Shown here: piece by piece, positions 10,937 to 49,726 of the stretch
How the letters are laid out: each line of letters begins with the position of its first letter
Numbering within the stretch: position 1 is the stretch's first letter
Assembly (NCBI GenBank): GCA_965231825.1
Contig: OZ246889.1
Coordinates: forward strand, 2,319,443 to 2,383,442
DNA: 64,000 bases
Source of the DNA: Acidobacteriota bacterium
GTDB taxonomy: Bacteria; Acidobacteriota; UBA6911; RPQK01; JAJDTT01
Direction of reading: 5' to 3'
Made by a program: the position numbers and the translations under genes
Notes under the pieces: generated by a model
Told to the model about the DNA's origin: nothing
Database searches by the model: none
What the model saw: only the letters and a program-made list of their open reading frames with translations

Positions 10937-10946
10937 GGGTGGAGTC

Positions 10947-11288: not shown

Positions 11289-11456
11289 CTGCCCGTGACG
11301 GTATTCGTCGCGGCCTCCCACCGGCGCGAAATTCCGGCGGACAGCGTCGCCCCTCGGCGAATGACGCCTGGCAGGATCGTCCATGGCATCCGGTCCCGGG
11401 AGCGCGTCGCCCGGTTCGGTGCTGAAGCAGAACCTGGCCACTAGGAACGGCGGTTC

Positions 11457-11699
11457 ATGATTCAGAAGGTCCTGTTTGGTCTCTATGTGCTCTATTGCTT
11501 TGAGGTCGGGATCTTTCTCCTCCTGTTTCCCTGGTGGGACCAGTGGAGCCAGAATTCGCTGCTGGATATCTACCCCTGGCTCCGGCTGATCATGCTCAAC
11601 AACTTCGTTCGCGGCGCAGTCTCCGGTCTGGGGCTGGCCAACCTGATTTTGGGGACCTGGGAAATTGTCCATTTTCAGCGATATTTTCCGAAGACATAG
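11457..11699 (+). CDS. Small hypothetical membrane protein (80 aa)
   Basis: Two predicted TM helices (LFGLYVLYCFEVGIFLLLFPWW; AVSGLGLANLILGTW). Lower GC than its neighbours. Overlaps the annotated thiE start. Confidence 0.35.
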   Translation: MIQKVLFGLYVLYCFEVGIFLLLFPWWDQWSQNSLLDIYPWLRLIMLNNFVRGAVSGLGLANLILGTWEIVHFQRYFPKT

Positions 11700-25933: not shown

Positions 25934-26144
25934 CGCTCCCGCCTCCCGTCCGTGCCCGAATCCCAGGCCGCCACGGTCCACCCGCGGGCCAGACCTGGAT
26001 GAACGGGCTCTCCGCGATCAGGCTGTCGCAGACCGGTCCCAGGAAACGGCGCAGCTCCTCACCGACGTCCACGAGGCGATCCGGCCCATCGATGTCGGTC
26101 CCGATCTGCCGCCGCATCTCGCGGATCGCCTTTCGAGGAGTCAT
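25926..26144 (-). CDS. Small hypothetical ORF (72 aa) translationally coupled between abiEi-A and hsdS
   Basis: Its ATG overlaps the abiEi-A stop (ATGA at 26141-26144). Its stop overlaps the proposed hsdS GTG start (GTGACTGA). High-GC, Arg/Gly-rich, no recognisable domain. May be a non-functional relic (for example the stub of a deleted abiEii). Confidence 0.3.
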   Translation of the reverse strand: MTPRKAIREMRRQIGTDIDGPDRLVDVGEELRRFLGPVCDSLIAESPFIQVWPAGGPWRPGIRARTGGGSGD

Positions 26145-26797
26145 GCTGTCAGCACATCGAGTACCGGACCGACGAGCGACTTTGCTCGGCACACGTCGGC
26201 GGCCCGCCAGATCTGGTCGACGCTCGCCTTGCGGTCGCGCAGGGCGTCGCTTAGCGCCTCGATCGCGATGTCCTTGCCGACCAGCCGCCGGAAGCGGAAG
26301 CAGTCCACCACGGTGCGGGCCGGGCTCGTGATACGGACGGGGACCCCCTCGAAGGTCGCGTTCACGACGCCGTAGCGCAGCCTGACCCCGGAGAATCGCA
26401 CCACTCGGATCGGCAGCCCGGGCAGGCGGGGCGTGCGGGCCTTGTGCGGAATGGCGATCCAGACCTCGTGTGGGAGCTGCGTGCCGATCCCGTAGACGCT
26501 CAGGGCCGTCAGCAGGCAGACTACGGCGCTCGGGACCCGGGCGCACACGGCGGCCCGGGTGTAGTGCTCTGTCGGTTCCACGTGGGCGAGGCGGTAGAGC
26601 CCGCGCGCCACTCGCTCGACCGAACCGTCATCCACCAGGCGCCGGAGCGCACGTGAGTGGACGCCCAGAGCGGCCGCGTCGCGCGAACGGAAGAAGGTCT
26701 TGGAGCCGAGCCGCTGCAGGCTAGAGTCACCTGTCGGGGAATATCGCACTGAAATGTCGCCAGATGAATTCAGTTGTTTACCTTTCGATTCATGCAT
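26141..26797 (-). CDS. AbiEi-family (COG5340) antitoxin-like transcriptional regulator, copy A
   Basis: wHTH ..VARGLYRL.., then VVCLLTALSVYGIGTQLPHEVWIAIPHKAR...IRVVRFSG...GVPVRITSPARTVVDCFRFRR.VGKDIAIEAL. Same architecture as AbiEi. Confidence 0.7.
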   Translation of the reverse strand: MHESKGKQLNSSGDISVRYSPTGDSSLQRLGSKTFFRSRDAAALGVHSRALRRLVDDGSVERVARGLYRLAHVEPTEHYTRAAVCARVPSAVVCLLTALSVYGIGTQLPHEVWIAIPHKARTPRLPGLPIRVVRFSGVRLRYGVVNATFEGVPVRITSPARTVVDCFRFRRLVGKDIAIEALSDALRDRKASVDQIWRAADVCRAKSLVGPVLDVLTA

Positions 26798-27010
26798 GCC
26801 ATGAATATAACCGGTGTGAGCTGTCTAGATCAAAATGTCGATAACCATTAATATTTGCCGTCATTATCAGTCATTGGCCGGTTGTCTCGGAAAACAGGGC
26901 CACAATTTCCGTCTCCAGGATGTTCGCCTCGGTCTCCTCACCGGTCTCGCGACTGCGGGCGAGCAGCCGGTCGCGGACGGACGCCGAGATGTTCTTGAGC
27001 GGACGTGTCC

Positions 27011-27612
27011 TCACGACAGAACCGCTTCCATGTACGGCTGCAGGACCGTGCGCGCCCGGCAGACGCTGGCTGCGCGCATGATCTCATCCGGGGTGGCGAG
27101 CCGTTGGCGCAGCACGTCCCGGAGGGCCTCCAGGGCGGTGTCGAGGCCTAACTTGTTGCGGTACCGGAAGCAGTCGACGACCGTCCGGGCCGGCGATGTG
27201 ATGGCAACCGGCACGCCGAGCATTGGGCGGCGGCCGATCCCGTATGTGAGCATCGCCTTCGAGAACCAGACGACCCGAACCTGCGCCGGCACTCGGGCGG
27301 GGCGGCGCGCCTTGCGGTTGATGGCGATCCAGACCTCGTGAGGGGATTCAGTACCGATCTCGTAAACGCGGAGCGCGGTCATCAGGCAGACGATGGCGTG
27401 CGGCACGGCAGCAGCTACCATGGCGACCGTCTCCAGTTCCGTCGGCTCGACCTCGGCCAGCCGGTAAGGGCCGCCGCCGAGGTTCTCAACGGCTCCGGTC
27501 GCAACGAGTCCGCGGAGGCGACGGTAAGGGACACCGAACGGCTCGATGTCTCGCGGCCGGAAAAAGGCACCAATGCCGGCTGCTTCGAGCGCGGCCGCAG
27601 TGAGTTCAGCCA
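27011..27612 (-). CDS. AbiEi-family (COG5340) antitoxin-like transcriptional regulator, copy B
   Basis: About 55% identical to copy A (..GGGPYRLAEVEPTE..IVCLMTALRVYEIGTESPHEVWIAINRKAR..VRVVWFSK..VAITSPARTVVDCFRYRNKLGLDTALEAL..PYMEAVLS). Start taken at ATG 27612 (MAELTAAAL). The track start at 27733 would run through the upstream operator. Confidence 0.7.
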
Positions 27613-27628
27613 TGGATGTATAGTAATT

Positions 27629-27658
27629 TATGTCGGCATATAGGTAATAGTGCCGACA
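27629..27658 (-). promoter_or_regulatory. Perfect inverted repeat ATGTCGGCA-N12-TGCCGACAT just upstream of abiEi-B (candidate autoregulatory operator)
   Basis: Read directly: atgtcggcatataggtaatagtgccgacat, 9-bp arms, AT-rich spacer, within 20 nt of the ATG. Confidence 0.5.
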
Positions 27659-27729
27659 TTTTGTTCTTGCTTTGCTCAGGCCGCCATAGCCGTCGCTTCG
27701 CCTGTTTGCCGTCCAGGGCAGGCGGAGGT

Positions 27730-28158
27730 TCAAGGCGGGGCGAGCGGGTCGACACGCGTGACGGTGTCGATCTGATCGAAGTGCCGGTCTGCCGATAGCA
27801 GCCGATCGATGCCGTGGGCCTCCATCGTTGCGACGTGCAGGGCGTCCCGTGCCGGCAACCCGGGATGCTGCACCAGCAGTTCGACCGCACGGGCCGTCTG
27901 GGGTTCCGTCACCGGCAGGATCTCGTCGCAGATGTCAGTCACGGCCTGGTACACGGTCCGGGCGTCTTCGGGCCGCCTTCGGGGGGCGTGGTAGTGGAGG
28001 ATCTCCTGTAGGACTTCCGTGCTGGTGATCAACCTGGTCCCCTGCTCAGTCGCGGCCAGCAGAGCCCGTCGGCAGGCCTCCCGGTACTGGGCATCACTGC
28101 CCGCGAGGTACATGAACACGTTGGCGTCGACGAAAAGCGAGTCACGCACGCTCGTCAA
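27730..28158 (-). CDS. vapC: PIN-domain toxin VapC
   Basis: LFVDANVFMY..., TSTEVLQEIL, ARDALHVATMEAHGIDRLLSADRHFDQI: PIN-domain acidic residues. 4-nt overlap with the upstream antitoxin gene. Confidence 0.85.
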   Translation of the reverse strand: MTSVRDSLFVDANVFMYLAGSDAQYREACRRALLAATEQGTRLITSTEVLQEILHYHAPRRRPEDARTVYQAVTDICDEILPVTEPQTARAVELLVQHPGLPARDALHVATMEAHGIDRLLSADRHFDQIDTVTRVDPLAPP

Positions 28159-28460
28159 CTGTCCTCGTCACTCCCCAGACCTTCGCTGTTGTGGAGACAG
28201 TCGGTAGCCAGGCCGACCTTCAGCCGGCTGTACTGGCGCTCCCACTCCGGCAGCGATTTCGGCGCTGGGACCGCCCCCTTCGCGTACAGCCTGTCGATGG
28301 CCTCCAGTCGGCGTTGCTGCGCCTCCGGCAGAACGCAGTACTGCACGACGGCCTCCCGCACGACTGCGGCCAACTTCTTCCCTTCGCGTCGTGCAATTCG
28401 CGACACTGCCGCGTACGCTCTCGCATCGAGCGTCACTTGGACTCGCCGTGCACCTCCCAT
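28155..28460 (-). CDS. vapB: Antitoxin VapB (ribbon-helix-helix/CopG-like)
   Basis: MGGARRVQVTLDARAYAAVSRIARREGKKLAAVVREAV is an RHH N-terminus. Coupled to vapC. Start at internal ATG 28460, because the track start at 28481 lies within the promoter -10. Confidence 0.7.
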   Translation of the reverse strand: MGGARRVQVTLDARAYAAVSRIARREGKKLAAVVREAVVQYCVLPEAQQRRLEAIDRLYAKGAVPAPKSLPEWERQYSRLKVGLATDCLHNSEGLGSDEDS

Positions 28461-28461
28461 G

Positions 28462-28545
28462 GCCCGTGATCGTACAGACACATATGATTTGTGTCAACCA
28501 ATGTGACTCGATAAATTTGTGGTGTCAGATATGTGTCAACTCCTG
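28462..28545 (-). promoter_or_regulatory. Near-consensus sigma70 promoter plus direct-repeat operator for vapBC
   Basis: On the coding strand: GTTGACACA...GTTGACACAaatcatatgtgtctgTACGATcacgggccATG. The -35 TTGACA (28492-28497), a 17-nt spacer and the -10 TACGAT (28469-28474) imply a leaderless or very short-leader transcript. GTTGACACA occurs twice (28492-28500 and 28534-28542). Confidence 0.45.
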
Positions 28546-28627
28546 TGAATCACACGAAGGCTGATGGGGAGCGGCGACAGTCTCCGCTCGGTCTGCGTGG
28601 CCCGCAGCCGCCGCAGAAGGGCCGGCG

Positions 28628-30742
28628 TCAAACGCGCATCTCTTCCAGCATCGCCGCGATCTCCTTCTCCACCTGCCGGATGTCGGCCTTGATCTCTTCC
28701 AAGGGACGGGGCGGCCGGTATTCGTAGAAGTAGCGATTGAAGTTGATCTCGTAGCCCACGAGCCCGACCTTTCCGTCCTGGGGGTCCCGGCGCTTCGAAT
28801 CGATCCAGGCGTCGGGAATGTGGGGCCTCACCTCGCGCTCGAAGAACGACTCGACAGCTTCGCTGAGGGGCACGTTCTCCGTGTCGCGGAGCTGCGGATC
28901 GGGCTCGGGCCGGCCCTTCCGGTCCCGGCAGACCGCGGCTTCGGTGTTGCGCTCGGACAGGGCGGAGAGCACAGCCTTCTTGATCGGCGCGGTGAGTTTC
29001 GGCCCGGCAGTTTGCGCTGCCCGGGAGAGCTCGGATTCGAAGTCAGCCCGATCCAGGAAGAGCCGGTCGGGCAGACTCCGGAGGAGGTCGCGGATCGTGG
29101 CCTGCTTCTCACGGCCCGCCCCTTCGTCCTTGGCCTTGGCCGCGCCCCTCTTTCGCGACCGCGCCAGGTTGATGAAGGCGCGCTGGTCGTCGAGCCGCGC
29201 GATCCGCTCGGGGCTGGCCTGGAAATCGAGCCGGAGCGGCCGTTCGACCGTGATCTTGCGGAAACGGAAATGCGTGGCCGGGTAGATGCGGCTGACGACC
29301 ACCTCCCGCTCCTCGCCGTTATCGTCCACGTTGCGGGTCGCGCCGTCCTCGAATTCCGCCAGCAGCCGCAGGATGTCCTCCTTGCGGTCGAACGGGATCT
29401 CCCGGCGCTTGGCTCCCAGGCTCTTTCGCAGCAGGACCCAGAACGACGTGGCGTTGATGAGCTGGACCTTGCCCCGCCGCTCGGGCCGTTTCCGGTTGGT
29501 AAGCACCCAGACGTAAGTGGCGATCCCGGTGTTGTAGAAGAGTTGTTCGGGCAGCGCGATGAGCGCCTCCAGCAGGTCGTTCTCCAGAATCCAGCGCCGG
29601 ATCTCACGCTCGTCGCTGCCGGCATAGCCCGTGAAGAGGGGCGATCCGTTCATGATGATGGCGATTCGGGAGCCGCCCTGTGAGGGTTCCTTGGAGTGCC
29701 CAAGCATGTGGAGGAGGAACAGGAGCTGGCCGTCGCTGATCCGCGGCAGACCCGGTGCGAAACGGCCGGCGGCGCCCCGGTCGTGCTCGGCCCGCACCGC
29801 GTCCTGGTCGCGTTTCCAGTCCTTGCCGTAGGGCGGATTGGCGATCATGTAGTCGAAGCCGGTTCCGGCGTGCCGGTCGTTCGAGAGCGTGCTCCCAAAG
29901 AGTACTCTCTTCGCGTCGCGGCCTTTTTTCGACTTTATGAAGAGGTCCGACTTGCAGATGGCATAGGTCTCCGGGTTCACCTCCTGGCCGAACAGGTGGA
30001 TGTGAGCGCCTGGGTTCACGGGGTTGGCCAGACGCGTGCCCTCTCGTATCTCGCCGAGGGTTGTGTGCTCCTTGGCGATGGTGAGCATGCCGCCTGAGCC
30101 GCAGCAAGGGTCGTAGACGCTTCGCGCAACGCCCTTCTTGCGCAGTTCTTCCTCGTCGCCGGCCAGCATCAGGTCCACCATGAGATGGACCACGTCGCGG
30201 GGCGTGAAGTGCTCGCCGGGATTTTCGTTGAGTGCCTCGTTGAATTTCCGGATGAGCTCCTCGAAGATCGTGCCCATCGTGAAGTTGTCGATGGCATTCG
30301 GATGGAGATTCACCTTCTTGGGGTCGCCGAAGCGCTGCATGACCAGAAAGAGGAGGCCCGCCTCGTCCAGCTTGGAGATGGTGTTGTCGAAGTCGAACTT
30401 CTCCAGCACCTCGCGCATGTTGGGACTGAACCCGGCGATGTAGTTGCGCAGGTTCTGCGCGATGTGTGGCGCGTCGGCGAGCAGCTTCGCGAAGTCGTAA
30501 CGCGAGGTGTTGTAGAAGGCGAATCCGGAGGCGCCTTGAAGCAGTCGGTCGGGGTTTTCGATCCTGCCCGTGTATTTGGCTTGAACCTCCAGCACTTTCG
30601 ACTTGGTGGGGGCCAGTACGCAGTCGAGCCGGCGAAGCACGGTGAGCGGGAGGATCACGTCCTGGTACTTTCCGCGCTTGAAGGTGTCGCGGATCAGGTC
30701 CGCCACCCCCCAGATGAAGCTGGTGATCTCGCTGTGGTTCAT
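28628..30742 (-). CDS. hsdM: Type I restriction-modification N6-adenine DNA methyltransferase HsdM
   Basis: HsdM N-terminal domain (SFIWGVADLIRD), AdoMet motif I (DPCCGSGGML) and motif IV (NPPYG). Start at ATG 30742 (MNHSEITSF). Confidence 0.95.
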   Translation of the reverse strand: MNHSEITSFIWGVADLIRDTFKRGKYQDVILPLTVLRRLDCVLAPTKSKVLEVQAKYTGRIENPDRLLQGASGFAFYNTSRYDFAKLLADAPHIAQNLRNYIAGFSPNMREVLEKFDFDNTISKLDEAGLLFLVMQRFGDPKKVNLHPNAIDNFTMGTIFEELIRKFNEALNENPGEHFTPRDVVHLMVDLMLAGDEEELRKKGVARSVYDPCCGSGGMLTIAKEHTTLGEIREGTRLANPVNPGAHIHLFGQEVNPETYAICKSDLFIKSKKGRDAKRVLFGSTLSNDRHAGTGFDYMIANPPYGKDWKRDQDAVRAEHDRGAAGRFAPGLPRISDGQLLFLLHMLGHSKEPSQGGSRIAIIMNGSPLFTGYAGSDEREIRRWILENDLLEALIALPEQLFYNTGIATYVWVLTNRKRPERRGKVQLINATSFWVLLRKSLGAKRREIPFDRKEDILRLLAEFEDGATRNVDDNGEEREVVVSRIYPATHFRFRKITVERPLRLDFQASPERIARLDDQRAFINLARSRKRGAAKAKDEGAGREKQATIRDLLRSLPDRLFLDRADFESELSRAAQTAGPKLTAPIKKAVLSALSERNTEAAVCRDRKGRPEPDPQLRDTENVPLSEAVESFFEREVRPHIPDAWIDSKRRDPQDGKVGLVGYEINFNRYFYEYRPPRPLEEIKADIRQVEKEIAAMLEEMRV

Positions 30743-30951
30743 GCCGGGTCCGTTGAATTTAACAGATTGCCGGACTTGGATACGGAACAATGAACAGGCA
30801 CTCTGCTCGACCCCGATCCTGACCCTCCGAGGCCAACTCCAAAGACCGGGACGTGTTACCTCTTGTCAACACTGACCGGGCTCCGTCTGTTCGGCGGCGG
30901 GTATTCTGGTGTAGCCTTCGGGAGAATTCTGAAAAAGAGATGGAGGATCTC

Positions 30952-32127
30952 ATGACTTGGAGAACTATTGCCGCAGCAGGTGTGCTGGCGATCGGAGCCA
31001 TTGCCTGCGCAGCTCCTGACGACCCAGGCTCGGCCGATGAGCGTGCGGACACCACGGAGGCGCCCCGCCACGTCAAGGTCTACTTCGAGAAGGGCATGTT
31101 CGGCGGCTGGCCGGCCAACCACGGGATCTGGATCTGGGGTGAGGAGATCCTCGTCGGATTCGGCATGGGCTACTACAAGGATCAGGGATTGCGGCACCAC
31201 ATCGACCGCGAAAAACCGGAGATTCCCATGCTGGCCAGGAGCCTCGACGGCGGCGAGACCTGGGCGTTGGAAGATCCGACGGCCAATGGGCACCTGATCA
31301 CCGAGGGCGGTTATCTGCACGGGGTCACACGGCCGGGTTTGACGATTCCTCCCATGCGCGAGAGCGAGGGCGGCATCGATTTCACCCACCCCGACTTCGC
31401 CCTGACGATCCGCACCAACAGCATTCACGCCGGAATCGGCCGCGTGTTCTACTCCTACGACCGGGGGCGCTCCTGGAACGGTCCCTTCCGGCTGCCCGAT
31501 TTCGACACTCCCGGAATCGCGCCGCGGACCGACTACATCGTCGACGACAAAGACACGTGCACCCTGTTCATCACGGCGGCAAAGCCGAACGGCCTGGAGG
31601 GTCGCCCCCTCTGCGTCCGCACCGCCGACGGCGGAAAGACCTGGAAGTTCCTCTCCTGGATCGCGCCCGAACAGGGGGAGGGTTTTTCCATCATGCCTGC
31701 CTCCGTGCGGCTCAGCGACATGGAGATCCTGGTGACGGTCCGCGATCACGACGGACCTCGACGGTGGATCGCCACGTACCTGTCCACCGACAACGGCGCG
31801 TCGTGGGAATATCTCAACGACGCAGTTCCCGACGCCGGTATTGGAAACCCGCCGGCCATGATCCAGTTGCGGGACGGACGCATCTGTCTGCTCTACGGCT
31901 ACAGGGCCGAGCCCTACAGCATTCGCGCGGTGCTCAGCAGCGACGGCGGCCGGACCTGGGGCGACCACAATACGCTCCGTGACGACGGCGCCAGCCGTGA
32001 CATCGGCTACGTCCGGGCCGTCGAGAGACCGGACGGCAAGGTGGTCGCCGTCTACTACTTCACCGACGAGGCTTCCGGCCCGGAACGGTACATTGGAGCG
32101 ACGATCTGGAGCCCGCCGCCGAAATAG
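30952..32127 (+). CDS. BNR/Asp-box repeat lipoprotein (sialidase-like glycoside hydrolase fold)
   Basis: Lipoprotein signal MTWRTIAAAGVLAIGAIAC. Four Asp-box motifs S-x-D-x-G-x-T-W (SLDGGETW, TADGGKTW, STDNGASW, SSDGGRTW). GGAGG RBS. Confidence 0.7.
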   Translation: MTWRTIAAAGVLAIGAIACAAPDDPGSADERADTTEAPRHVKVYFEKGMFGGWPANHGIWIWGEEILVGFGMGYYKDQGLRHHIDREKPEIPMLARSLDGGETWALEDPTANGHLITEGGYLHGVTRPGLTIPPMRESEGGIDFTHPDFALTIRTNSIHAGIGRVFYSYDRGRSWNGPFRLPDFDTPGIAPRTDYIVDDKDTCTLFITAAKPNGLEGRPLCVRTADGGKTWKFLSWIAPEQGEGFSIMPASVRLSDMEILVTVRDHDGPRRWIATYLSTDNGASWEYLNDAVPDAGIGNPPAMIQLRDGRICLLYGYRAEPYSIRAVLSSDGGRTWGDHNTLRDDGASRDIGYVRAVERPDGKVVAVYYFTDEASGPERYIGATIWSPPPK

Positions 32128-32305
32128 CCTGCAGGTGTCGTCAACGGTCGGTGGCTATGGATAATGTGGGACTTCGCGCGCCGTCCCGCGAGTGTAACTG
32201 AGCTGCCTGAACCGAATGAATGTTTCGGTGGATTGAAATATGGCGAATATCCTGCGCGATCGTCGCGATCTCCGGTGAGAAATGGGGGCTGAAGGAGAGA
32301 TTCTG

Positions 32306-33361
32306 GTGACGGCCGGATCGGGTCCGCGCATCAGATCGATCGCTACGGCGGTTCCGCCCTACCGAATCACCCAGGACGAGGTCAGGGATTTCGGTGCCAG
32401 GTTCTTTGCCGACGATGTCGCGAGTCTGGACCGCCTCCTCGCTGTTTACGAGAACGCAGCGATCGGAGAAGGGTATTGCTGCATGCCCAGAAGCTGGTAC
32501 GGAGAGGCCGGGCATGGCTTCGAGGAGAAGAACCGCCTCTATCTTGAAAACGCGGTGGCGTTGCTGAAAGACGCGGCCATCGAATGCCTGGCCGCCGGCA
32601 ACACCGACCCGGGCGACATCGACCTGATCGTTACCGTCTCGACGACCGGCATCGCGACGCCCAGCCTGGACGCCAGGCTCATGACCGAGCTGCCGTTTCG
32701 CCGCGACGTGCAGAGACTCCCGATCTTCGGTCTGGGATGCGCGGGGGGCGTCCTGGGGCTGGCCCGTGCCGCCGCATGCGCGCGCTCTGCTCCCGGCAGC
32801 CGGGTTCTGTTCCTGGTCGTGGAGCTCTGCACGCTCACGTTCCGCGGCCGTGATCGATCCGTGCGGAACCTGGTCGCCACGGCGCTGTTCCGTGACGGCG
32901 CCGCCGCAGTATTGCTGACGGATGACGGGCCGGGACCGGCGATCTCTTCGTGGGGCGAATACACCTGGCCCGATTCGCTCGACATCATGGGCTGGGACGT
33001 GGCCGATGACGGGTTCGGGGTCGTGTTCTCGCGCAGCATTCCCGACCTCGTGCACTCACACATGCGGAGCGCAACAGAGGAATTTCTTTCGACCCGGAAC
33101 CTGGGCCTTCGGGATATCGACAGCTTCGTCTGCCACCCCGGCGGCGCCAAGGTGCTTGACGCTCTCGAAGAGGCTTTTGGCCTCCCGGCCGGCGGTCTCC
33201 AGCAATCACGGGCGGTATTGCGTGACTACGGCAACATGTCGGCCGCGACCGTGCTGTTCGTACTCGACCGCATCCTCCGGGACCGCACGGCCAATCGACA
33301 TTTGTTGACCAGCCTGGGCCCGGGGTTTTCGGCCGGATTCCTGCTCCTGCAGGCGACGTGA
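32306..33361 (+). CDS. Type III polyketide synthase (chalcone/stilbene synthase family)
   Basis: Active-site Cys (GLGCAGG), CHPGG, GNMSAATVLFVL. GTG start at 32306 with an AAGGAGAG RBS. Confidence 0.9.
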   Translation: MTAGSGPRIRSIATAVPPYRITQDEVRDFGARFFADDVASLDRLLAVYENAAIGEGYCCMPRSWYGEAGHGFEEKNRLYLENAVALLKDAAIECLAAGNTDPGDIDLIVTVSTTGIATPSLDARLMTELPFRRDVQRLPIFGLGCAGGVLGLARAAACARSAPGSRVLFLVVELCTLTFRGRDRSVRNLVATALFRDGAAAVLLTDDGPGPAISSWGEYTWPDSLDIMGWDVADDGFGVVFSRSIPDLVHSHMRSATEEFLSTRNLGLRDIDSFVCHPGGAKVLDALEEAFGLPAGGLQQSRAVLRDYGNMSAATVLFVLDRILRDRTANRHLLTSLGPGFSAGFLLLQAT

Positions 33362-33377
33362 TGCGTCTCTTTTTCCC

Positions 33378-33911
33378 ATGAGCGCGCTGCACCTGGTCGT
33401 CGGATTTCTCGTTCTTCAGCGTCTCGTGGAGCTGGCCATCGCACAGCGCAACCATCGGGCGCTGGCGTCTAAGGGGGCGATCGAGTACGGACGGCGGCAC
33501 TATCCCGTGCTTGTCGCGGTGCACGCCGGCTGGCTGCTGGCGCTGCTTGGCACCATCGATCCGCAGACGCCGGTGTCGATCCCCCTGCTCGCCGTCTTCG
33601 TCCTGCTGGAGTGCGGGCGGGTGTGGGTGGTCGTGACCCTGGGTTCGCGATGGACCACTCGCATCCTGGTCGTCCCCGGCGCCAAACGCATTCGGAGCGG
33701 ACCGTACCGCTACCTCAACCACCCGAACTACCTGATCGTGTGCGGCGAGATCGCCGTGGTGCCGCTGATGTTCGGCGCATGGACACTGGCAGTGATCGCG
33801 TCCGTGTTGAACTTTCTGGCGCTCCGCACGCGCATCCGGATCGAGAACAAGGCCCTGGCGGAGGTCTACGGCGAGGACCAGGGCGAAGTTTCAGCGATGG
33901 ACAGAAGATAG
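33378..33911 (+). CDS. Isoprenylcysteine carboxyl methyltransferase (ICMT)-family membrane methyltransferase
   Basis: 177 aa, multi-TM, C-terminal RIRIENKALAEVYGE motif typical of the ICMT/PEMT family. 17 nt downstream of the PKS, matching the srsA-srsB (alkylresorcinol) pairing. Confidence 0.75.
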   Translation: MSALHLVVGFLVLQRLVELAIAQRNHRALASKGAIEYGRRHYPVLVAVHAGWLLALLGTIDPQTPVSIPLLAVFVLLECGRVWVVVTLGSRWTTRILVVPGAKRIRSGPYRYLNHPNYLIVCGEIAVVPLMFGAWTLAVIASVLNFLALRTRIRIENKALAEVYGEDQGEVSAMDRR

Positions 33912-34074
33912 CGCCCTGATTTCAAAAGGATGAGTCACGAACCCGACCCCGCTGCCGAATGTAAGGCGTAATCGATATCATTGATGTATTGACACGTTCT
34001 TTTTTCGAACATCCGCCGGCCAGGACTGAGATGGATGCGCCCTCGTTTTTCAGAGACTCGACGGAGGTGAAACC

Positions 34075-35634
34075 GTGCAACCGAAAATGACCAAACGCCA
34101 ATTCCTGCAATCCATCGGCGCCGTCTCCGGGGTTGCCGCCATGTATCGGAGCATGAACGCGCTGGGCATGGCCAGTCCGACTACGGCCGGGACGGCCCAG
34201 TTCCAGTTGACGCCGCAGTCGGGCTACGGAACGAAAGTCGTCATCTTGGGGGCCGGCATTTCCGGTCTCGTCGCCGCCTACGAACTGTCGAAGGCGGGTT
34301 TCGACTGCACGGTCCTGGAGGCCACCGGCCGCGCCGGCGGGCGCAACCTCACGGCTCGGGGCGGGGACGTGATCCGGGAGGAGGACAGCCGGCAATGGGT
34401 GGACTTCGACGCAGAAGACCATCTCTATTTGAACCTCGGTCCGGCCCGCCTGCCGCACCACCACGCGACCATACTCGGGTATTGCCGGAAATTCGGAGTC
34501 GACCTCGAGGTCTTCACCAACGACAACCGGGCGGCTTTCTTCCACAACCAGGATCGCTTCGATGGTCCGGTCGTGGCCCGGCAGGTGATGACGGATACCC
34601 GCGGGTATATTGCCGAACTCCTGGCCAAGGCGGTGAACCGAAATGCCCTGGACAGTGAGTTGACCGGCGAGGACAAGGAATTGATGCTTGACCTGCTCCG
34701 GAGCTATGGCGACCTGGACCCGGATGATTTCTACGCGGGCACGAGCCGCGGCGGGCATCTGGGGCCGCACGTCCATGCCGGTCTGGCGCCGGGAGAGGCC
34801 AACGACCCCCTCGATCTGAGTCAACTGCTCCGGTCGGACTTCTGGCAGTACAAGCTCCATTTCAGCCAATTCCTCGATCAGAACCCCACTCTGCTACAGC
34901 CTGTCGGCGGAATGGACGCTATTGTGGCCGCCTTCGAAGAGCGGGTGGAGCCTCTCATCGCATACCGGAGCATCGTCACGTCGATTCGGAAAACGACGGA
35001 CGGAGTTCGCATCGTCTTCCGGCGACGACGCGGTAGAAGGAGAGTCCTGGAGGCGGACTACGCAATTTGCGCCATACCGGCGCCGGTCCTGAGGGACATC
35101 CCCAACGACTTTTCGCCTGAGACGCAAGCGGCGATCGAGTCGATCGAGTTCACCAACGCGGTCAAGATCGGATTCCAGGCTCAGCGGCGTTTCTGGGAGG
35201 AAGACCACGCCATCTATGGCGGCATTTCGTGGACCGACCAGGACATTACGCAGATCTGGTATCCGGCCTACGGCTATCATCGTGAAAAGGGAATCGTCCT
35301 CGGGGCCTATATCTGGGATCCCGAGCCCGGGCTGCGCTACTCGGAAATGACACCGTCCGAACGCTTGCAGGCCGCCGTCGACGAGGGTGAGCTCATCCAC
35401 CCCGGCTATGCCACGGAACTGGAATCGGGCGTGAGCCGCGCCTGGTCCAAGGTCCGGTTCCAGCGGGGGGGGGTGGCCGGAGAGCTACAAGCCGCCGGAG
35501 CAACTCCGAGAGCCCGATGGAAGGATCTATTTCGCCGGCGATCAACTGAGCGCCTTGCCCGGTTGGCAGGAAGGGGCTGCCCTGGCGGCGCAGGCCGCAG
35601 TGGCCGCGATCCACGAACGGGTCATGATGGCCTG
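34075..35634 (+). CDS. Flavin-containing amine oxidase (MAO/L-amino-acid oxidase family) with Tat-like signal; +1 frameshift in a G9 run
   Basis: KRQFLQSIGAVSGVAAM signal, then VVILGAGISGLVAAYEL...EATGRAGGR (FAD GxGxxG). After the G9 tract (35465-35473) the conserved C-terminus ..PDGRIYFAGDQLSALPGWQEGAALAAQAAVAAIHERVMMA* is in the +1 frame and ends at 35634. The track ORF to 35916 is read-through. GTG start with a GGAGGTGA RBS. Confidence 0.7.
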
Positions 35635-35688
35635 AAAGACCGCGCTGGCGGGTACGCTGCAATCACTGCGCAAGCCGCTTTCTCGGAA

Positions 35689-36153
35689 CTACTGGTCGTG
35701 GAAGGTGGTCAGTTCCATGATCTCGTAGTGCTTGGTCCCGCCGGGGGTTCGGATCTGGACCTCGTCCCCCTCTTCCCGGTTCATCAGGCTGCGGCCGATG
35801 GGAGAAGTGGTGGAGATCTTGCCGGCCTTGACGTCCGACTCCTCGCTGGTGACCAGCCGGTAGGTCACCTCGGTTTCGGTGTCCAGGTCGAAAAGGACCA
35901 CGGTGGACCCGTATGAGACCCGGTCGGTGGGGATCTTGCTCAAATTGATGAGGGAGAATTTGGCCAGTCGTGTTTGCAGATGGGAAAGTTGGGCCTGGAC
36001 GTAGGATTGCCGCTCTTTGGCGGTCTGGTACTCGGCGTTTTCCCGGAGGTCACCCAGTTGCAACGCTTTCTTGAGCGCTGCGGGAAGCTCCTCCCGCAAC
36101 TCCCGCTCCAGCTTCCGGACTTCCGCTTCCAGCTTGGCCTTGGCCTCCTTCAT
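35689..36153 (-). CDS. greA: Transcription elongation factor GreA
   Basis: N-terminal coiled-coil, then the FKBP-like C-domain (..YGSTVVLFDLDTETEVTYRLV...PIGRSLMNREEGDEV). Confidence 0.95.
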   Translation of the reverse strand: MKEAKAKLEAEVRKLERELREELPAALKKALQLGDLRENAEYQTAKERQSYVQAQLSHLQTRLAKFSLINLSKIPTDRVSYGSTVVLFDLDTETEVTYRLVTSEESDVKAGKISTTSPIGRSLMNREEGDEVQIRTPGGTKHYEIMELTTFHDQ

Positions 36154-37580
36154 AACCCTGCCGCCTCCCCTGCGATAACAAGAATCTGGGCCGGGTAGAT
36201 CCCCACGTAGAGGGTGCCGGCGGCCATAACTAGTATCACGATCCGCGCCGCCAACGGCACCGGAACAGGATCCGGCGGCGAGGAGGCTTCCTTCATGAAC
36301 ATCAGGACGATGAGCTGCAAGTAGTAGTAGAGTCCCACGGCCGAGGCCAGCACCGCCAGAATCACCAGGGCGACCAGGTCCGCCTCGACGGCGGCCGAGA
36401 AGAGGAAGAGCTTTCCGTAGAATCCGGCCGTCGGCGGGATGCCGATCAGGGAAAGCAGGAAGATGGTCAGGGAGACGCTCAGGAGCGGATGGCGGTAGCC
36501 GATCCCCCGGAAGTCCTCGAGCTTAGTGAACTGCTCGTTCCGGCGGGAGAAGACCTGCACCACGGCGAACGCTCCCAGTGTCATGAGGGAGTAGGCCGCC
36601 AGATAAAAAAGTACCCCCTGGGCGCCTCGAGGACTGTTGGCGATGACGCCGAGCAGGATGTAACCGGCGTGGGCGATGGAGGAGTAGGCCAGGAGGCGTT
36701 TGACATCGGTTTGGGTCAGGGCCGCCACGTTGCCGATGATCATGGTCGCCGCGCAAGCGATCCAGAGCAGGTATTGCCATTGGTCGGCGCTCGCAGGGAA
36801 GACCTGGTGAAGAAGGCGCAGGAGAGTGATCAGGACGGCCGCCTTGGAGCCCACGGCCAAGTGGGCGGTGATGGGCACGGGGGCTCCCTGGTAGACGTCC
36901 GGAGTCCAGACGTGCAACGGCGCCAGGGCCGCCTTGAAGCCGAATCCCACCAGCAGCAGTCCCAGGCCCAACAGGAACGTGGCCGTGTCCGCCTGCCCCT
37001 GGGTCGCCGTTTCGGCGATCCGTGAATATTGGGTCGAGCCCGTTGCGCCGTACAAGAGCGCAATCCCGTAGAGCATGAACGCCGTGGAGAAAGCGCCCAG
37101 CAGGAAGTATTTGAGAGCCGACTCGTTCGACCTGGGATCCCCCCGGCGATAACCGGCCAGGACGTAGCTGGAGATGGAAAGGATCTCCAGCCCCAGAAAG
37201 GTCATGATGAGATCGGCGCTCACGGCCATGAGCGACATCCCCACCGTCGACATCAGCAGGAGAGGGAAGTATTCGCCGTGCCGCAGTCGCTCCCGCTTCA
37301 GGTAGGAGACCGAAATCAGGGCAACCGTCGCGCTGGAGACCAGGAACAGGATCCTGGCGCCGCTGCCCAACGGGTCCATGGACACCATGCCGAAGAAGGC
37401 GGGGCCATGATCGTTCCATTGGAGTACAACGCCGGCCAGCGCTGCGGCCAGGGTCAGCGAAGCGGCATATCCCAGTCGAGCCTGGTGGCGAGACGGAAGA
37501 AGGGGGATGGCCAACATGAGCAGAATGCCGGCTACGGCCAGAAGGATCTCCGGGAGCAGGGCGGTGGGGTTAAGGGACAT
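36150..37580 (-). CDS. nuoN: NADH-quinone oxidoreductase subunit N
   Basis: 14-TM antiporter-like subunit with the NuoN/ND2 family pattern. Last gene of nuoJKLMN. Confidence 0.9.
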   Translation of the reverse strand: MSLNPTALLPEILLAVAGILLMLAIPLLPSRHQARLGYAASLTLAAALAGVVLQWNDHGPAFFGMVSMDPLGSGARILFLVSSATVALISVSYLKRERLRHGEYFPLLLMSTVGMSLMAVSADLIMTFLGLEILSISSYVLAGYRRGDPRSNESALKYFLLGAFSTAFMLYGIALLYGATGSTQYSRIAETATQGQADTATFLLGLGLLLVGFGFKAALAPLHVWTPDVYQGAPVPITAHLAVGSKAAVLITLLRLLHQVFPASADQWQYLLWIACAATMIIGNVAALTQTDVKRLLAYSSIAHAGYILLGVIANSPRGAQGVLFYLAAYSLMTLGAFAVVQVFSRRNEQFTKLEDFRGIGYRHPLLSVSLTIFLLSLIGIPPTAGFYGKLFLFSAAVEADLVALVILAVLASAVGLYYYLQLIVLMFMKEASSPPDPVPVPLAARIVILVMAAGTLYVGIYPAQILVIAGEAAGL

Positions 37581-39105
37581 TGCTTCGGACTACCTGTGCT
37601 TGCTTTACCTGGTCCAGCCGGTCCACCAGCAGTTGAATGCTGCCGTCCATGGTTCTCAGAAAGGTGCCGGAGCCGATCCCCATCCAGAGCGAAAGCGCGA
37701 TGGCCGGAATCAGCATCGCCCCCTCCCGGAAGCTCAGGTCCGGCAGCCGGCGGTTCGCTTCCTTCCCGACCCGTCCCATGAAGACCCGCTGGTACATCCA
37801 GAGCATGTATGCCGCCGAAAGAATCACTCCGCAGACGGCAACGGCGGCGGCCGGAACATTGGTGAGAAAGGTCCCCTGGAGAATCAGGAACTCGCCCACG
37901 AACCCGCCGAGGCCGGGCAGCCCGATGCTACCCAGCAGGACGATGAAGAAGCAGGCCGAGTAGCGCGGCATGGAATGGGCCAGCCCCCCGAACTCGTCGA
38001 TCCGTCGGGTATGACGGCGGTCGTAGAGGATCCCCACCAGCAGAAACAGGGCTCCGGTGGAGACTCCGTGATTGAGCATCTGGTAGGCCGCCCCCTCCAT
38101 GGACTGGAAGCTGAAGGAGAAGATTCCCAGCACCACGAAGCCCAGGTGGCTGACGGAAGAGTAGGCCACGAGCCGCTTCAGGTCGGGCTGAACCATGGCC
38201 ACGAGAGCGCCGTAGATGATGCCGATCAGCGCCAGGATGCAGATCGCCGGCGCCAACTGCGCCGATGCCCAGGGGAAGAGGGGCAGACAGAAACGCAGGA
38301 TCCCGTAGGCCCCCATTTTGAGCAGGACCCCGGCCAGGATCACGGAAGCGGCCGTGGGGGCTTCCGTGTGGGCGTCCGGCAACCAGGTGTGCAGCGGAAA
38401 GACGGGAATCTTGACGGCGAACGCCACGAAGAACAGGCCGAAGAGAAGGGTTTCGACTCCCGGGGAAAGAACCACCTCGCCCCGTTGCAGGATCCCGATC
38501 ATGTCGACCAGATCGAAGTTGCCGGTTCCCATCAGGAAATAGAGGATGACGATCCCCGCCAACATCAGCAGCGAACCCGCCATGGTGTAGATGAAAAACT
38601 TCACCGCGGCGTAGATCCGCCGGCTCGACCCCCAGATCCCGATCAGGAAATACATGGGAATCAGGGAGACCTCCCAGAAGACGTAGAAAAGGATCAGGTC
38701 CAGAGCCAGGAAGACGCCCAGGATCCCCACCTCCAACAGCAGGATGGAGGCCAGGTAGAGCTTGAGCTTGTCCTTCAGATTCCAACTGGACAACAGGGCC
38801 AAGGGGATCAGGACGGTGGTCAGGAGCACCAGGAGCAGGCTGATCCCGTCCAGTCCCAGGTAGTACTGGACTCGAAACCCGGCAGCCTGGAACCAGTCGG
38901 CCTGCTCCACCATCTGGAAGGCTCCAGTCTGGTTGTCAAAATTCCTGAAGAGAACCACCGACCAGAGAAACGCCGCCAGGGATGCGATCAGCGCGGCCCA
39001 TTTCAGGAGTCGTTCTCGTCCCGGCGGGAGCAGGCAGACCACGGCTGCTCCGATCGTCGGAATCAACAGCATCAGGCTAAGAGGAGACGTAGCCAAGGGC
39101 ATCAA
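37570..39105 (-). CDS. nuoM: NADH-quinone oxidoreductase subunit M
   Basis: NuoM/ND4 family (..GIDGISLLLVLLTT.., WLPDAHTEAPTAASVILAGVLLKMG). Confidence 0.95.
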   Translation of the reverse strand: MMPLATSPLSLMLLIPTIGAAVVCLLPPGRERLLKWAALIASLAAFLWSVVLFRNFDNQTGAFQMVEQADWFQAAGFRVQYYLGLDGISLLLVLLTTVLIPLALLSSWNLKDKLKLYLASILLLEVGILGVFLALDLILFYVFWEVSLIPMYFLIGIWGSSRRIYAAVKFFIYTMAGSLLMLAGIVILYFLMGTGNFDLVDMIGILQRGEVVLSPGVETLLFGLFFVAFAVKIPVFPLHTWLPDAHTEAPTAASVILAGVLLKMGAYGILRFCLPLFPWASAQLAPAICILALIGIIYGALVAMVQPDLKRLVAYSSVSHLGFVVLGIFSFSFQSMEGAAYQMLNHGVSTGALFLLVGILYDRRHTRRIDEFGGLAHSMPRYSACFFIVLLGSIGLPGLGGFVGEFLILQGTFLTNVPAAAVAVCGVILSAAYMLWMYQRVFMGRVGKEANRRLPDLSFREGAMLIPAIALSLWMGIGSGTFLRTMDGSIQLLVDRLDQVKQAQVVRSNVP

Positions 39106-41036
39106 TCGATCACGCTATAGAGATACAAGAAGACGAGCGCGGCCCCGGTCACGATCCAGGCCGCGTAAGTGCGGGTGTTCCCGCTCTGCATCCGGGTCGC
39201 CACGCCGCTCCATCGCCGAAACAGGGAGGCGGTGCCGTTGACCGCCCCATCCACGATGCCTACGTCGACGGCTCTCCACAAGACGCGCCTGGACAGTGCC
39301 TTGAGACCGCCGACCACGAACCGGGAATAGGCCTGATCGATCCGGAACTGGTGCAGGAGCGTGCCGTGGAGCCCCGGATACCGGTCCGCCAGCCGCCGGG
39401 GAAGAGACTGGTCCCCAGCGTAGAGGCGGTAGGCCAGGCCGGCGCCCAAAAGGCTGATGGCCAGCGCCACGCCGCCTGCCAGCAACTCCAGACTGTGGGA
39501 GGCGTGACTCGCCGAGACGCCGTGGTCATAGGAGTACCGGAACACGGGCGCCAGAAAGCGGTCCAGACGGTGATCGCCCAGGTAGGCCGGCAGACCGGCG
39601 ATTCCGGCGACCGCCGCCGCTCCGGCCAGAATGGTCAGCGGCGCGGTGACCGCAGTTCCCGCTTCCGAGCCGGATTTCCCGTGGCCGTGGCCGGGCGTAC
39701 CGTAAAAGGCCAGGAACATGAGTCGGCACATGTAGAAGGCGGTGAGGCCGGCCACCACCAGGCCCGCCACCCAGAAGACCGGATGTCCCAGGGGACCGTC
39801 GAGCGTTCGCCATAGGATCTCGTCTTTGGAGAAGAACCCGGACAAGGGGAAAATCCCGGCCAGGGCCGCGGTCCCCACCCACATGGTCCAACAGGTCACT
39901 CTCAGGGAGTTCTTCAGTCCTCCCATGCGGAACAGGTCGAGCTCGTGGTGAAGCCGCAGCAGGACGCTGCCCGCCCCCAGGAAGAGCAGGGCCTTGAAAA
40001 AGGCGTGGGTGAAGAGGTGAAAGATCCCGGTGCTGAAGGCTCCCACACCCAGCGCCATGAACATGTAGCCCAGTTGACTGATGGTGGAGTAGGCCAGGAC
40101 CTTCTTGATGTCCCGCTGGACCAGCGCCGTCAGGGCCGCCAGGAGCGCCGTCAAGACACCGACGACGGCGATCAGGAGGAGCACGTCGGGCGCCCGGCTG
40201 TAGAGGGCGGCCGAGCGCACCACCAGGTAGACGCCGGCGGTCACCATGGTGGCGGCGTGGATCAGGGCGCTCACCGGAGTGGGGCCCTCCATGGCGTCCG
40301 GCAGCCAGACTTGAAGCGGGATTTGGGCGCTCTTGCCGGTCGCCCCCAGAAACAGGAGCAGAGTGATTGCCGCCAGAACGGTGAAGCCGCTCTCGGGTTG
40401 GGGATGGGTCCGGCTCACGATTTCGAAGAGGGATCCGAACTCCAGAGTGCCGAAGGTCTTGAAAATCAGGAAAACACCCAGGAGAAAACAGGCGTCCCCC
40501 ACCCGATTCACGACGAAGGCCTTCTTGGCCGCATCCCCGGCGCTCTTCCGTTCAATGTAGTAGCCGATCAAGAGATAGGAGCAGAGGCCCACGCCTTCCC
40601 AGCCCACGAACAGCAGCAGGTAGTTCCCCGCCATCACCAGCAGGGACATCATGAACACGAAGAGGTTGAGATAGGCGAAATAACGGTACAGACCCGTCTC
40701 GCCCTCCATGTAGGCCGTGGAGTAGACGTGAATCAGGAACCCGACTCCCGTGATGACCAGGAGCATGATCATGGAGAGAGGGTCCAGCAGGAAGCTGCAC
40801 TCGGCGGTGAAGGTTCCCGCCTGAATCCAGGTGAAGAGGCGGTGGACGATCTGCTGCTCCGGTGCCGGCAGCCGGATGAACTCGGCGAAGACGGCCAGCA
40901 GGAACAGGAAGCTGGCTCCGGTAGCCGTGCAGCCGACACTGGAGACGATGCGAGCCGGCAGCCGCTTCCCGACCAGGCCGTTGAACAGGAAGCCGGCGAG
41001 GGGTGGGGCCAGAGCCAACCAGAAGTACTCGATCAT
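39102..41036 (-). CDS. nuoL: NADH-quinone oxidoreductase subunit L
   Basis: NuoL/ND5 family with a long C-terminal amphipathic-helix region. Start at ATG 41036 (MIEYFWLALAPPLAG). The track extension to 41186 would overlap nuoK. Confidence 0.95.
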   Translation of the reverse strand: MIEYFWLALAPPLAGFLFNGLVGKRLPARIVSSVGCTATGASFLFLLAVFAEFIRLPAPEQQIVHRLFTWIQAGTFTAECSFLLDPLSMIMLLVITGVGFLIHVYSTAYMEGETGLYRYFAYLNLFVFMMSLLVMAGNYLLLFVGWEGVGLCSYLLIGYYIERKSAGDAAKKAFVVNRVGDACFLLGVFLIFKTFGTLEFGSLFEIVSRTHPQPESGFTVLAAITLLLFLGATGKSAQIPLQVWLPDAMEGPTPVSALIHAATMVTAGVYLVVRSAALYSRAPDVLLLIAVVGVLTALLAALTALVQRDIKKVLAYSTISQLGYMFMALGVGAFSTGIFHLFTHAFFKALLFLGAGSVLLRLHHELDLFRMGGLKNSLRVTCWTMWVGTAALAGIFPLSGFFSKDEILWRTLDGPLGHPVFWVAGLVVAGLTAFYMCRLMFLAFYGTPGHGHGKSGSEAGTAVTAPLTILAGAAAVAGIAGLPAYLGDHRLDRFLAPVFRYSYDHGVSASHASHSLELLAGGVALAISLLGAGLAYRLYAGDQSLPRRLADRYPGLHGTLLHQFRIDQAYSRFVVGGLKALSRRVLWRAVDVGIVDGAVNGTASLFRRWSGVATRMQSGNTRTYAAWIVTGAALVFLYLYSVID

Positions 41037-41038
41037 GG

Positions 41039-41350
41039 TCAGCCCTGAAGCCTGTTGACGGAATCGATGTCCAGAGACTGGGAGTGCCGGTCGAGACCCA
41101 GGATCAGCGCCAGTCCCACCGCCGCCTCCGCCGCGGCCACGGTCATGACGAAGAAGACGAAGATGTGGGCGTCCACTTGGTTCCACGTCCGCGCGTAGGC
41201 CAGAAACGTGAGGTTGACGGCGTTGAGCATCAATTCCACCGACATGAACATGGTGATGACGTTGCGTCTGACGATGAAGCCGGCGACCCCGATGACGAAG
41301 AGGACCGCGCCCAGCGCCAGGTAGTGAGTGGCAGGGATCATACCCATCAC
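41039..41350 (-). CDS. nuoK: NADH-quinone oxidoreductase subunit K
   Basis: 103 aa, 3 TM; ..SVELMLNAVNLTF..VAAAEAAVGLALI.. matches NuoK/ND4L. Confidence 0.95.
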   Translation of the reverse strand: MMGMIPATHYLALGAVLFVIGVAGFIVRRNVITMFMSVELMLNAVNLTFLAYARTWNQVDAHIFVFFVMTVAAAEAAVGLALILGLDRHSQSLDIDSVNRLQG

Positions 41351-41846
41351 TCGGGACGATGCTTGACCAGGACGACGGCGCCCAGAATGGCCACCAGGAT
41401 CAAAATGGAGGTGACCTCGAAGGGCAGCAGATAGTCCTGGAAGAGAATCTGGGCGATCTCTTTCGGACCCTCGCCTGATCCGATCGGGTCAACTGATCCG
41501 CGGGGACGCGACGCCGGGAAGACACGAAGCAGAACAAACGCCAGGAAGGCGGCTGCCGGCAATGCGGCCAAGGCCGTCTTCTTGAACCGGTCGGGACCGA
41601 ACCTCTCCGACTTCGGATCCACAAGCATGATCACGAACAGGAACAGGACCATGATGGCCCCGGCGTAAACGATGACCTGCAGAGCGGCGACGAGGGCGGC
41701 TCCCAACTGAAAGTAGAGGATGGCCAAGGCACCGAAGCAGACGATCAGGGAGAATGCGCTGTGGACGGCGCGCTGCTGGAGAACGACCAAAAGGGCGGAG
41801 CCGACGGCTACGGCTGCAAAAACGTAAAAGACGATCTGCTCCACAC
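41347..41846 (-). CDS. nuoJ: NADH-quinone oxidoreductase subunit J
   Basis: VEQIVFYVFAAVAVGSALLVV... is the NuoJ/ND6 pattern. GTG start at 41846 with a GGGGGAG RBS. The track ORF to 42159 is a non-coding extension. Confidence 0.85.
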
Positions 41847-41872
41847 TTGGCTCCCCCGCTTGCGGAGAATGA

Positions 41873-41901
41873 ATCTTAGTGAAGGGCCCGAATGGTGTCA
41901 A
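41873..41901 (-). promoter_or_regulatory. Near-consensus sigma70 promoter for nuoJKLMN (-35 TTGACA, 17 nt, -10 TAAGAT)
   Basis: Minus strand reads cgttcgTTGACAccattcgggcccttcacTAAGATtcattctccgcaagcgggggagccaagtGTG. No nuoA-I genes lie upstream in this window. Confidence 0.4.
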
Positions 41902-42183
41902 CGAACGGACCCGAAATCGGGCTGCGGCGAGTTCCTCATTTTCCTTACGATACGGTAAGGTGCTGATAGGGCTTGTCCGGCAGGAGGACACAGTCGATGC
42001 GGGCACGGCGATGGGTACGTCGGGCGTGGAACATTTGGGCACGGCAGCCGTTTGGTTGGAGGCATCAGTCTCGTTGTGGGAGATGAGCGACCATGCCCGC
42101 GCCAGGAAGGGTTCGGCCCAATGCGATCTCGACGATCTGAAACGAGTCTTGGGGGTCATCCGCGGAAGTCTGGAGAATCAGGA

Positions 42184-46414: not shown

Positions 46415-46507
46415 GAATTGGATCGACGCCGATGGATTCACGACGAAACGGAATCGCCGCCGGTTGCCCGTGCTTTCCGGGTTTCGAAGTCAAGCACCCG
46501 CCGCGTC

Positions 46508-47434: not shown

Positions 47435-47523
47435 AGCAGGTCTCGCGCGGTTGATGTGCGTCTGCTGCCGGCTGGCAGACCGGCGCGGCGTCGTAGTAGA
47501 CTGGGCTCGAAAACGATGGACCC

Positions 47524-48507: not shown

Positions 48508-48594
48508 CCCGAGACCGGTTTTCCCCAAGATCTCACCAGTCGCGTCAATGCCGACACGTTTTCCCAAAGTGGCGTACCTCAGGAAAGGAATCCG

Positions 48595-49686: not shown

Positions 49687-49726
49687 CGGCCGCCGGGAAT
49701 CGCCGCCGCGGGTTCCAGGGATTCAA

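Follow-up and report, generated by a model that had tools for sequence, protein, structure and literature searches.

Do the three genes at positions 32306–35634 of this stretch of an Acidobacteriota genome form one biosynthetic cluster, or do they belong to separate units? The stretch (hereafter the window) comprises 64,000 nucleotides of contig OZ246889.1 (assembly GCA_965231825.1) from a Bryobacterales-like member of the Acidobacteriota. Listing and translation of its open reading frames (ORFs) give the following gene order: a BNR-repeat protein, a type III polyketide synthase (PKS), an ICMT-family methyltransferase and a flavin amine oxidase, all on the forward strand, and then greA and nuoN/M/L on the reverse strand. 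The original prediction, made from the DNA letters, took the PKS, ICMT and oxidase genes together as a small specialised-metabolite cluster, with the oxidase as a periplasmic or extracellular tailoring enzyme. Our results suggest that the locus very probably contains two independent units side by side, i.e. a phenolic-lipid PKS–ICMT pair and a separate L-amino-acid oxidase (LAAO) gene.

The PKS–methyltransferase pair

The two genes of the pair are as follows.

32306..33361, + strand: type III PKS (351 aa, GTG start, stop codon at 33359–33361; identified with Pfam)
33378..33911, + strand: ICMT-family membrane methyltransferase, BpsB/SrsB/DquB-like (177 aa; PF04140)

As had been predicted, the first gene encodes a type III PKS of the chalcone synthase family. 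Three Pfam models match it above their cutoffs (i.e. PF00195 (Chal_sti_synt_N) with 75.6 bits, PF02797 (Chal_sti_synt_C) with 61.5 bits and PF08392 (FAE1_CUT1_RppA) with 63.9 bits), and its length from the GTG codon at 32306 equals that of its homologues. These homologues number in the thousands, with identities of up to 93%, or 98% in the tblastn locus L003. A genome scan with the PKS led to 80 loci. The nearest ones (98–75% identity) belong to metagenome-assembled genomes of the Acidobacteriota/Bryobacterales, which look like putatively sponge-derived bins, judged from their isolate names. PKS homologues with 55–66% identity are found in Alphaproteobacteria (Rhodospirillales, Kiloniellales and Stellaceae) and in Vicinamibacterales.

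An alignment of 121 homologues reveals that Cys145, His277, Asn310 and Trp230 are invariant and that Lys282 is nearly so. The Cys–His–Asn spacing of 132 + 33 residues is the same as that of DquA (C141/H273/N306). Lys282 is located five residues after the catalytic His (His+5), a position that has been tied to starters bound to acyl carrier protein in the DquA study (PMC9827899). Trp230 precedes the catalytic His by 47 residues and is aligned to the Trp of the IMGW motif in Pks11; mapped by its spacing from the His, it is probably the equivalent of ArsB W281. The solved structure closest to the PKS is that of the mycobacterial long-chain alkylpyrone synthase Pks11 (4JAO; E-value 4e-58, 200 bits), followed by CylI (146 bits), THNS (134 bits), plant chalcone synthases (∼105 bits) and Pks18 (97 bits); this placement is a ranking of PDB scores, with the SrsA, BpsA, ArsB/C and PkqA sequences outside the comparison. 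PKS homologues with 59–66% identity carry the JGI label of alkylresorcinol/alkylpyrone synthase.

The second gene encodes a protein that matches PF04140 (95 bits) and PEMT (37.5 bits), and hydropathy alone gives it four hydrophobic, transmembrane-like windows of 19 residues (Kyte–Doolittle values of 1.7–2.2). It starts 16 nt past the PKS stop codon; the ICMT-family gene had been predicted correctly, its distance of 17 nt from the PKS had not. Of the 77 loci with room downstream, which come from the Acidobacteriota, the Vicinamibacterales and many Alphaproteobacteria, 76 have an ICMT homologue (by tblastn) directly 3' of the PKS gene and in the same orientation, and the gap is <150 nt in 75 cases. 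This bears out the predicted pairing of the srsA–srsB kind, and the methyltransferase is co-conserved with the PKS. The sole exception is L082, which has a reverse-strand gene for a multi-pass, transporter-like membrane protein at 9199–10218 instead of ICMT.

We also clustered all ORFs of 82 related loci and the window, using a greedy ORF caller that was misled by antisense ORFs of high GC content. In this clustering, no genes other than those for the PKS and ICMT are recurrent, and there is no conserved third biosynthetic gene. The next-commonest clusters, read by eye, are alphaproteobacterial neighbours (i.e. recG, mfd, and genes for a DUF502-like membrane protein and an SdhE-like protein). 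Across the closest clade, the pair holds the same chromosomal position. The module moves as a strict two-gene unit, and its known range is extended to uncultivated Acidobacteriota/Bryobacterales and to a large set of Alphaproteobacteria.

The oxidase gene and its variable slot

Downstream of the pair, the features that concern the oxidase are as follows.

33912..34074, no strand: ICMT–oxidase spacer (163 nt; the insertion point of relatives is ∼40 nt in, near 33951)
34075..35635, + strand: gene for an LAAO-like flavoprotein, interrupted (GTG start; 519 aa after correction)
34075..34176, + strand: Tat-type signal peptide, KR variant, MQPKMTKRQFLQSIGAVSGVAAMYRSMNALGMAS (from homologue comparison)
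35465..35473, + strand: G9 homopolymer, site of a +1 frameshift (from comparison with orthologues)

The third gene does not encode an SrsC-type hydroxylase, as the original prediction had noted, and its product belongs to the amine oxidase family. It matches PF01593 with 146 bits and contains the FAD motif ILGAGISG. After correction of the reading frame (one G removed), the 519-aa protein matches the LAAO of Rhodococcus opacus (RoLAAO; 2JAE) over its full length (E-value 7e-83; query 54–517 against chain 13–486). Of the six pocket residues, five (R84, D227, Y371, W426 and W467) are unchanged and Gly takes the place of A466, as read from the 2JAE alignment against a published list (PMC10900486), with a chain numbering offset by one and counted by hand.

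The twin-arginine (Tat)-like signal that had been predicted for the oxidase is present at GTG 34075, i.e. MQPKMTKRQFLQSIGAVSGVAAM. Its N-terminus consists of T-K-R-Q-F-L-Q and a hydrophobic stretch and, by this motif, is of the Tat type with KR in place of RR; oxidase homologues have T-[KR]-R-x-F-[LI] and a hydrophobic stretch, with RR in several of them. Tat signals have been reported for the LAAOs of R. opacus and Gluconacetobacter diazotrophicus (PMC5053998). The oxidase is like these two enzymes in its full-length alignment, its pocket residues (those of RoLAAO) and its N-terminal Tat signal. Unlike RoLAAO-type enzymes, the clade studied here has a KR rather than an RR Tat motif and the A466-to-Gly change, and the gene is frameshifted. 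The oxidase is thus predicted to be of the secreted LAAO type, not a phenol hydroxylase. As a Tat-exported FAD oxidase, it would act outside the cytoplasm and deaminate free L-amino acids, yielding keto acids, ammonium and H2O2. A GGAGG motif 7 nt 5' of GTG 34075 fits independent translation of the gene. This assignment guards against the annotation of a secreted LAAO as a tailoring enzyme for polyketides.

The oxidase gene fills a variable slot between the ICMT gene and greA. Synteny of greA and the nuo genes is common to L001–L009, L011 and L086, and the closest clade (i.e. L002–L004, L006–L009 and L011) is the only one in which the oxidase gene is found beside the pair. It is missing in L001 and L005 despite their shared BNR–PKS–ICMT–greA–nuo synteny, and all of the more distant loci (∼66) are without it next to the pair. 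The third gene is thus not conserved in orthologous clusters beyond the closest clade. In L006 and L086, an insertion of ∼2.4 kb that starts ∼40 nt past the ICMT stop codon lies between the ICMT and oxidase genes and carries a reverse-strand gene for an AAA_15/AAA_21 ATPase of 597 aa (9608–12000 in L006 and 204–1997 in L086). Such ATPases are often met in defence systems. A related rearrangement is present in L007 (10718–11155), where a reverse-strand insert separates the two genes. Oxidase homologues with 80%, 73% and 69% identity sit in unrelated neighbourhoods in the three contexts sampled; one adjoins an amino-acid ABC transporter, and a second has a TRAP transporter and a xanthine-dehydrogenase-like operon as its neighbours.

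Some further observations concern the slot itself. L007 has a second, partial ICMT copy just 5' of its oxidase gene. In the oxidase-less loci, ICMT and greA are separated by a 243-nt spacer with a long inverted repeat, GAGTCTGCGCGGTAGAAATGATCG ... CGATCAATTTCTGCCGCGCAGGCTC (L001, 9578–9820), and in L005 a transposase-like ORF of 783 aa (IS4/Tn5-like, by eye) is located inside this inverted-repeat spacer (9572–12295). The spacer looks like the scar of a miniature mobile element or an insertion hot spot.

We consider it very improbable that the three genes form a single cluster in which a Tat-exported amine oxidase replaces SrsC as a lineage-specific periplasmic tailoring enzyme. The oxidase gene does lie on the same strand as the ICMT gene, 163 nt downstream; it adjoins the pair in L002–L004, L008, L009 and L011; and the third gene of the srs, pkq and hid operons encodes a flavoprotein. 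However, the oxidase is an LAAO homologue that has kept the amino-acid binding residues and is not a phenol hydroxylase, and alkylresorcinols and alkylpyrones offer no amine for oxidation. Neither L001 and L005 nor the ∼66 distant loci have its gene beside the pair, reverse-strand inserts part it from ICMT in L006, L086 and L007, and none of the three sampled contexts of its close homologues includes a neighbouring PKS. These observations, together with the frameshift described below, tell against the predicted role in periplasmic tailoring: the oxidase is not part of the PKS–ICMT unit. Several points nevertheless weigh against a reading as two independent units with a phenolic-lipid pair. (i) The oxidase gene adjoins the pair on the same strand in most genomes of the closest clade, and read-through transcription may occur. 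(ii) That the PKS and ICMT genes are transcribed together is inferred from just the 16-nt gap and the conservation of the two genes. (iii) NCBIfam gives no specific model for the PKS; the best match is DpgA, and we rejected DpgA as its named equivalog at a score of 163 bits, far under the cutoff of 425 bits. (iv) By analogy with ArsB W281, Trp230 would hint at a resorcinol, yet DquA has the same Trp and makes pyrones only, so that the residue does not predict the ring type.

The oxidase gene had also been described as a single gene ending at 35634. This end lies in a second frame and is reached by crossing a frameshift at G9: frame 0 covers 34075–35467 and the +1 frame covers 35468–35635, with a stop codon at 35633–35635. 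The conserved C-terminus (GGWPESYK...HERVMMA) is encoded in the +1 frame, and read-through in frame 0 ends in a tail that is not conserved and that runs into greA. The window reads CAGC-G9-TGG, versus CAGC-G7-C-TGG (Q-R-G-G-W) in every orthologue, including those of L086, L003, L004 and L006. G9 falls just before the Trp codon equivalent to RoLAAO W426, and it is the only run of at least eight G in the window. It is also the sole uncompensated indel over 3.5 kb when compared with L086, and the sole one within the three genes when compared with L003. The corrected oxidase is 99% identical to the intact protein P0121, L086 carries an oxidase with 99% identity, and a copy from another sample at this level of identity is intact.

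G9 is either a homopolymer error of sequencing or assembly or a very recent inactivating mutation, because the 56 codons downstream are undamaged. A biologically real frameshift, i.e. the recent origin of a pseudogene or a switch that turns a secreted H2O2-producing oxidase on and off by strand slippage, is a possibility from which we lean only slightly away. It would agree with the sequence difference from the 99%-identical L086, which amounts to the replacement of C by G and the gain of one further G (G7 to G9), with the lack of other frame-breaking indels in comparisons with L003 and L086 over ∼15 kb, and with the dispensability of the oxidase gene, of which L001 and L005 have no copy. But inactivation would have to be very recent, given that the downstream codons match P0121, and long homopolymers are a classic spot for sequencing and assembly errors. 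If the frameshift is real, the C-terminal segment for FAD and substrate binding is lost. The homopolymer is therefore flagged for a check before the gene is called a pseudogene.

Predicted product and relation to known systems

The PKS–ICMT pair appears, from its sequence features, to be a standard phenolic-lipid pair of the BpsAB/SrsAB type in a new host lineage. Two-gene loci with a PKS and an ICMT-like protein have been described before (PMC9827899 and PMC6669644), and type III PKS clusters in sponge-associated Acidobacteriota are already included in genome-mining papers. By means of Cys145–His277–Asn310, the PKS would load a long-chain fatty acyl starter; extension with malonyl units would be followed by cyclisation to an alkylpyrone and/or an alkylresorcinol, and the integral-membrane ICMT-family enzyme would methylate this product within the membrane. 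The likely products are long-chain alkylpyrones or alkylresorcinols and their methyl ethers, because the arrangement is that of BpsA/BpsB, DquA/DquB and SrsA/SrsB. The predicted end product is a methoxy phenolic lipid retained in the envelope rather than a quinone, because no hydroxylase was found in the window.

We then compared the pair with known systems. BpsA/BpsB of Bacillus subtilis and DquA/DquB of the Sporomusaceae likewise consist of a PKS gene followed by a near-abutting small ICMT gene with no third biosynthetic gene, and are conserved as a unit across a lineage. DquA further resembles the PKS in its Cys–His–Asn spacing, the Lys at His+5 and the Trp at the putative ArsB-281 position. 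By contrast, the hosts of BpsAB and DquAB are endospore formers, whereas the pair here belongs to non-sporulating Gram-negative Acidobacteriota and Alphaproteobacteria. SrsABC of Streptomyces griseus, in which srsB is annotated as ICMT (PMC6669644), and PkqABC of Mycobacterium smegmatis and Streptomyces sp. MNU77, the corresponding three-gene operon (PMC9927152), also have a PKS followed by an ICMT-type methyltransferase. Their third gene encodes a flavin hydroxylase/oxidoreductase that turns methylated alkylresorcinols into quinones, and this gene has no counterpart here.

Two other systems are more remote. HidABC of picocyanobacteria and a planctomycetal operon also cluster an alkylresorcinol-type type III PKS with a methyltransferase, but their order is methyltransferase–oxidoreductase–PKS, whereas here it is PKS–methyltransferase with no oxidoreductase. 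CepA/CepB of 'Entotheonella' sponge symbionts are similar in forming a conserved PKS–methyltransferase operon of ∼1.8 kb with variable surroundings in uncultivated marine host-associated bacteria, and they have been proposed as the source of phenolic lipids of primary importance. However, CepB is a soluble class I methyltransferase dependent on S-adenosylmethionine (SAM), with a glycine-rich motif, unlike the ICMT-family membrane enzyme found here.

Pfam scans of 44 ORFs in the 64-kb window, of which ten have no Pfam match and beside which three short ORFs lie outside the scan, detect no SrsC/PkqC-type hydroxylase; the oxidase is the only monooxygenase-type protein among them. The scans return housekeeping genes, type I restriction–modification genes, defence and toxin–antitoxin genes, nuoJ–N, UbiA and UbiE/MenG. 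We rejected the UbiA prenyltransferase and the UbiE/MenG methyltransferase as cluster members; they are 13–17 kb away, beyond the nuo genes. They belong to a forward-strand run at 44163–50446 that encodes an NAD-dependent epimerase, a DUF92 membrane protein, UbiA, a ThiS–ThiG fusion, a 3-dehydroquinate-synthase-like protein and UbiE/MenG. This run may represent a prenylated quinone or lipid pathway, and it has no linkage to the PKS in other lineages.

Two further readings of the pair have to be weighed. It seems unlikely that the pair makes a polyketide quinone that serves as a respiratory electron carrier, like PkqABC of mycobacteria and Streptomyces, with a hydroxylase encoded elsewhere and with the proximity of nuoJ–N reflecting respiration. 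Pks11 and PkqA-type enzymes are indeed the closest characterised relatives of the PKS, ∼2.2 kb containing the oxidase gene and greA separate the pair from nuoN, and the position of the pair is stable in the closest clade and in alphaproteobacterial loci, as is typical of primary-metabolism genes. Against this, an SrsC/PkqC-like FAD monooxygenase gene is beside the pair in none of the 80 loci and is not found by the Pfam scans of the window, so that the enzyme for a quinone product would have to come from another part of the genome; adjacency to nuo genes is also limited to the closest clade, and in Alphaproteobacteria the pair adjoins mfd, recG and the gene for a DUF502-like membrane protein. 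More tentatively than the two-unit reading, and with some doubt, we suggest that the pair could represent a near-core pathway, maintained by vertical descent, and not an accessory cluster for an antibiotic, in these non-sporulating Gram-negative lineages (i.e. marine, apparently host-associated Bryobacterales and many Alphaproteobacteria with the pair beside mfd and recG). If so, a methylated phenolic lipid would have a structural or redox role in their envelope. Unless the lipid has such a core role in the membrane or in respiration, the pair represents no new biology.

Neighbouring genes and sequence context

The locus is flanked by two further features.

30853..32127, + strand: BNR/sialidase-like repeat protein (PF13088 and PF02012; context, outside the module)
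35689..36153, − strand: greA, convergent with the oxidase gene and followed by nuoN/M/L (PF01272 and PF03449; context)

The predicted position between a BNR gene and greA agrees with these coordinates. The BNR gene is found 5' of the PKS gene in the closest relatives only (L001–L009 and L011), and it is displaced by ∼4 kb in L004 and L006. The GC content is flat over the region (0.62–0.64), and base composition gives no sign of recent horizontal transfer. The description of the locus as accessory-like is therefore apt in part: the ICMT–greA slot varies and there is a defence island upstream, but the pair has a fixed position in its clade and its base composition is unremarkable.

An Rfam scan of 31900–36300 gave nothing credible, and the ICMT–oxidase spacer is without a match in it. 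Promoter and terminator scans gave no excess over the shuffled expectation. There is a weak hairpin with a T-run between the PKS stop codon and the ICMT start, which we discounted as evidence of termination.

A type I restriction–modification system is present upstream on the reverse strand (23403–30790), with an HsdS-like gene at 24506–25981, HsdM at 28628–30790 and other genes between those of the subunits. Genes inside the system encode a Schlafen/AlbA_2 protein (23403–24509) and an AbiEi antitoxin-like protein (26141–26797); further inserts are an ORF of 240 aa that matches nothing in Pfam and a PIN toxin gene with a small upstream ORF (27730–28481). The inserts at this site differ among relatives (e.g. 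AbiEii, ParE/Phd and a DDE transposase).

On the other side, the reverse-strand nuo cluster next to greA (36150–42000) apparently contains the membrane-arm genes nuoJ–K–L–M–N only, and L001 is laid out alike. It is bounded by a forward-strand phosphodiesterase gene (42052–44166), and the other genes of complex I must lie elsewhere in the genome. At 5670–7631, the reverse strand encodes the selenocysteine-specific elongation factor SelB, which indicates that the organism probably uses selenoproteins.

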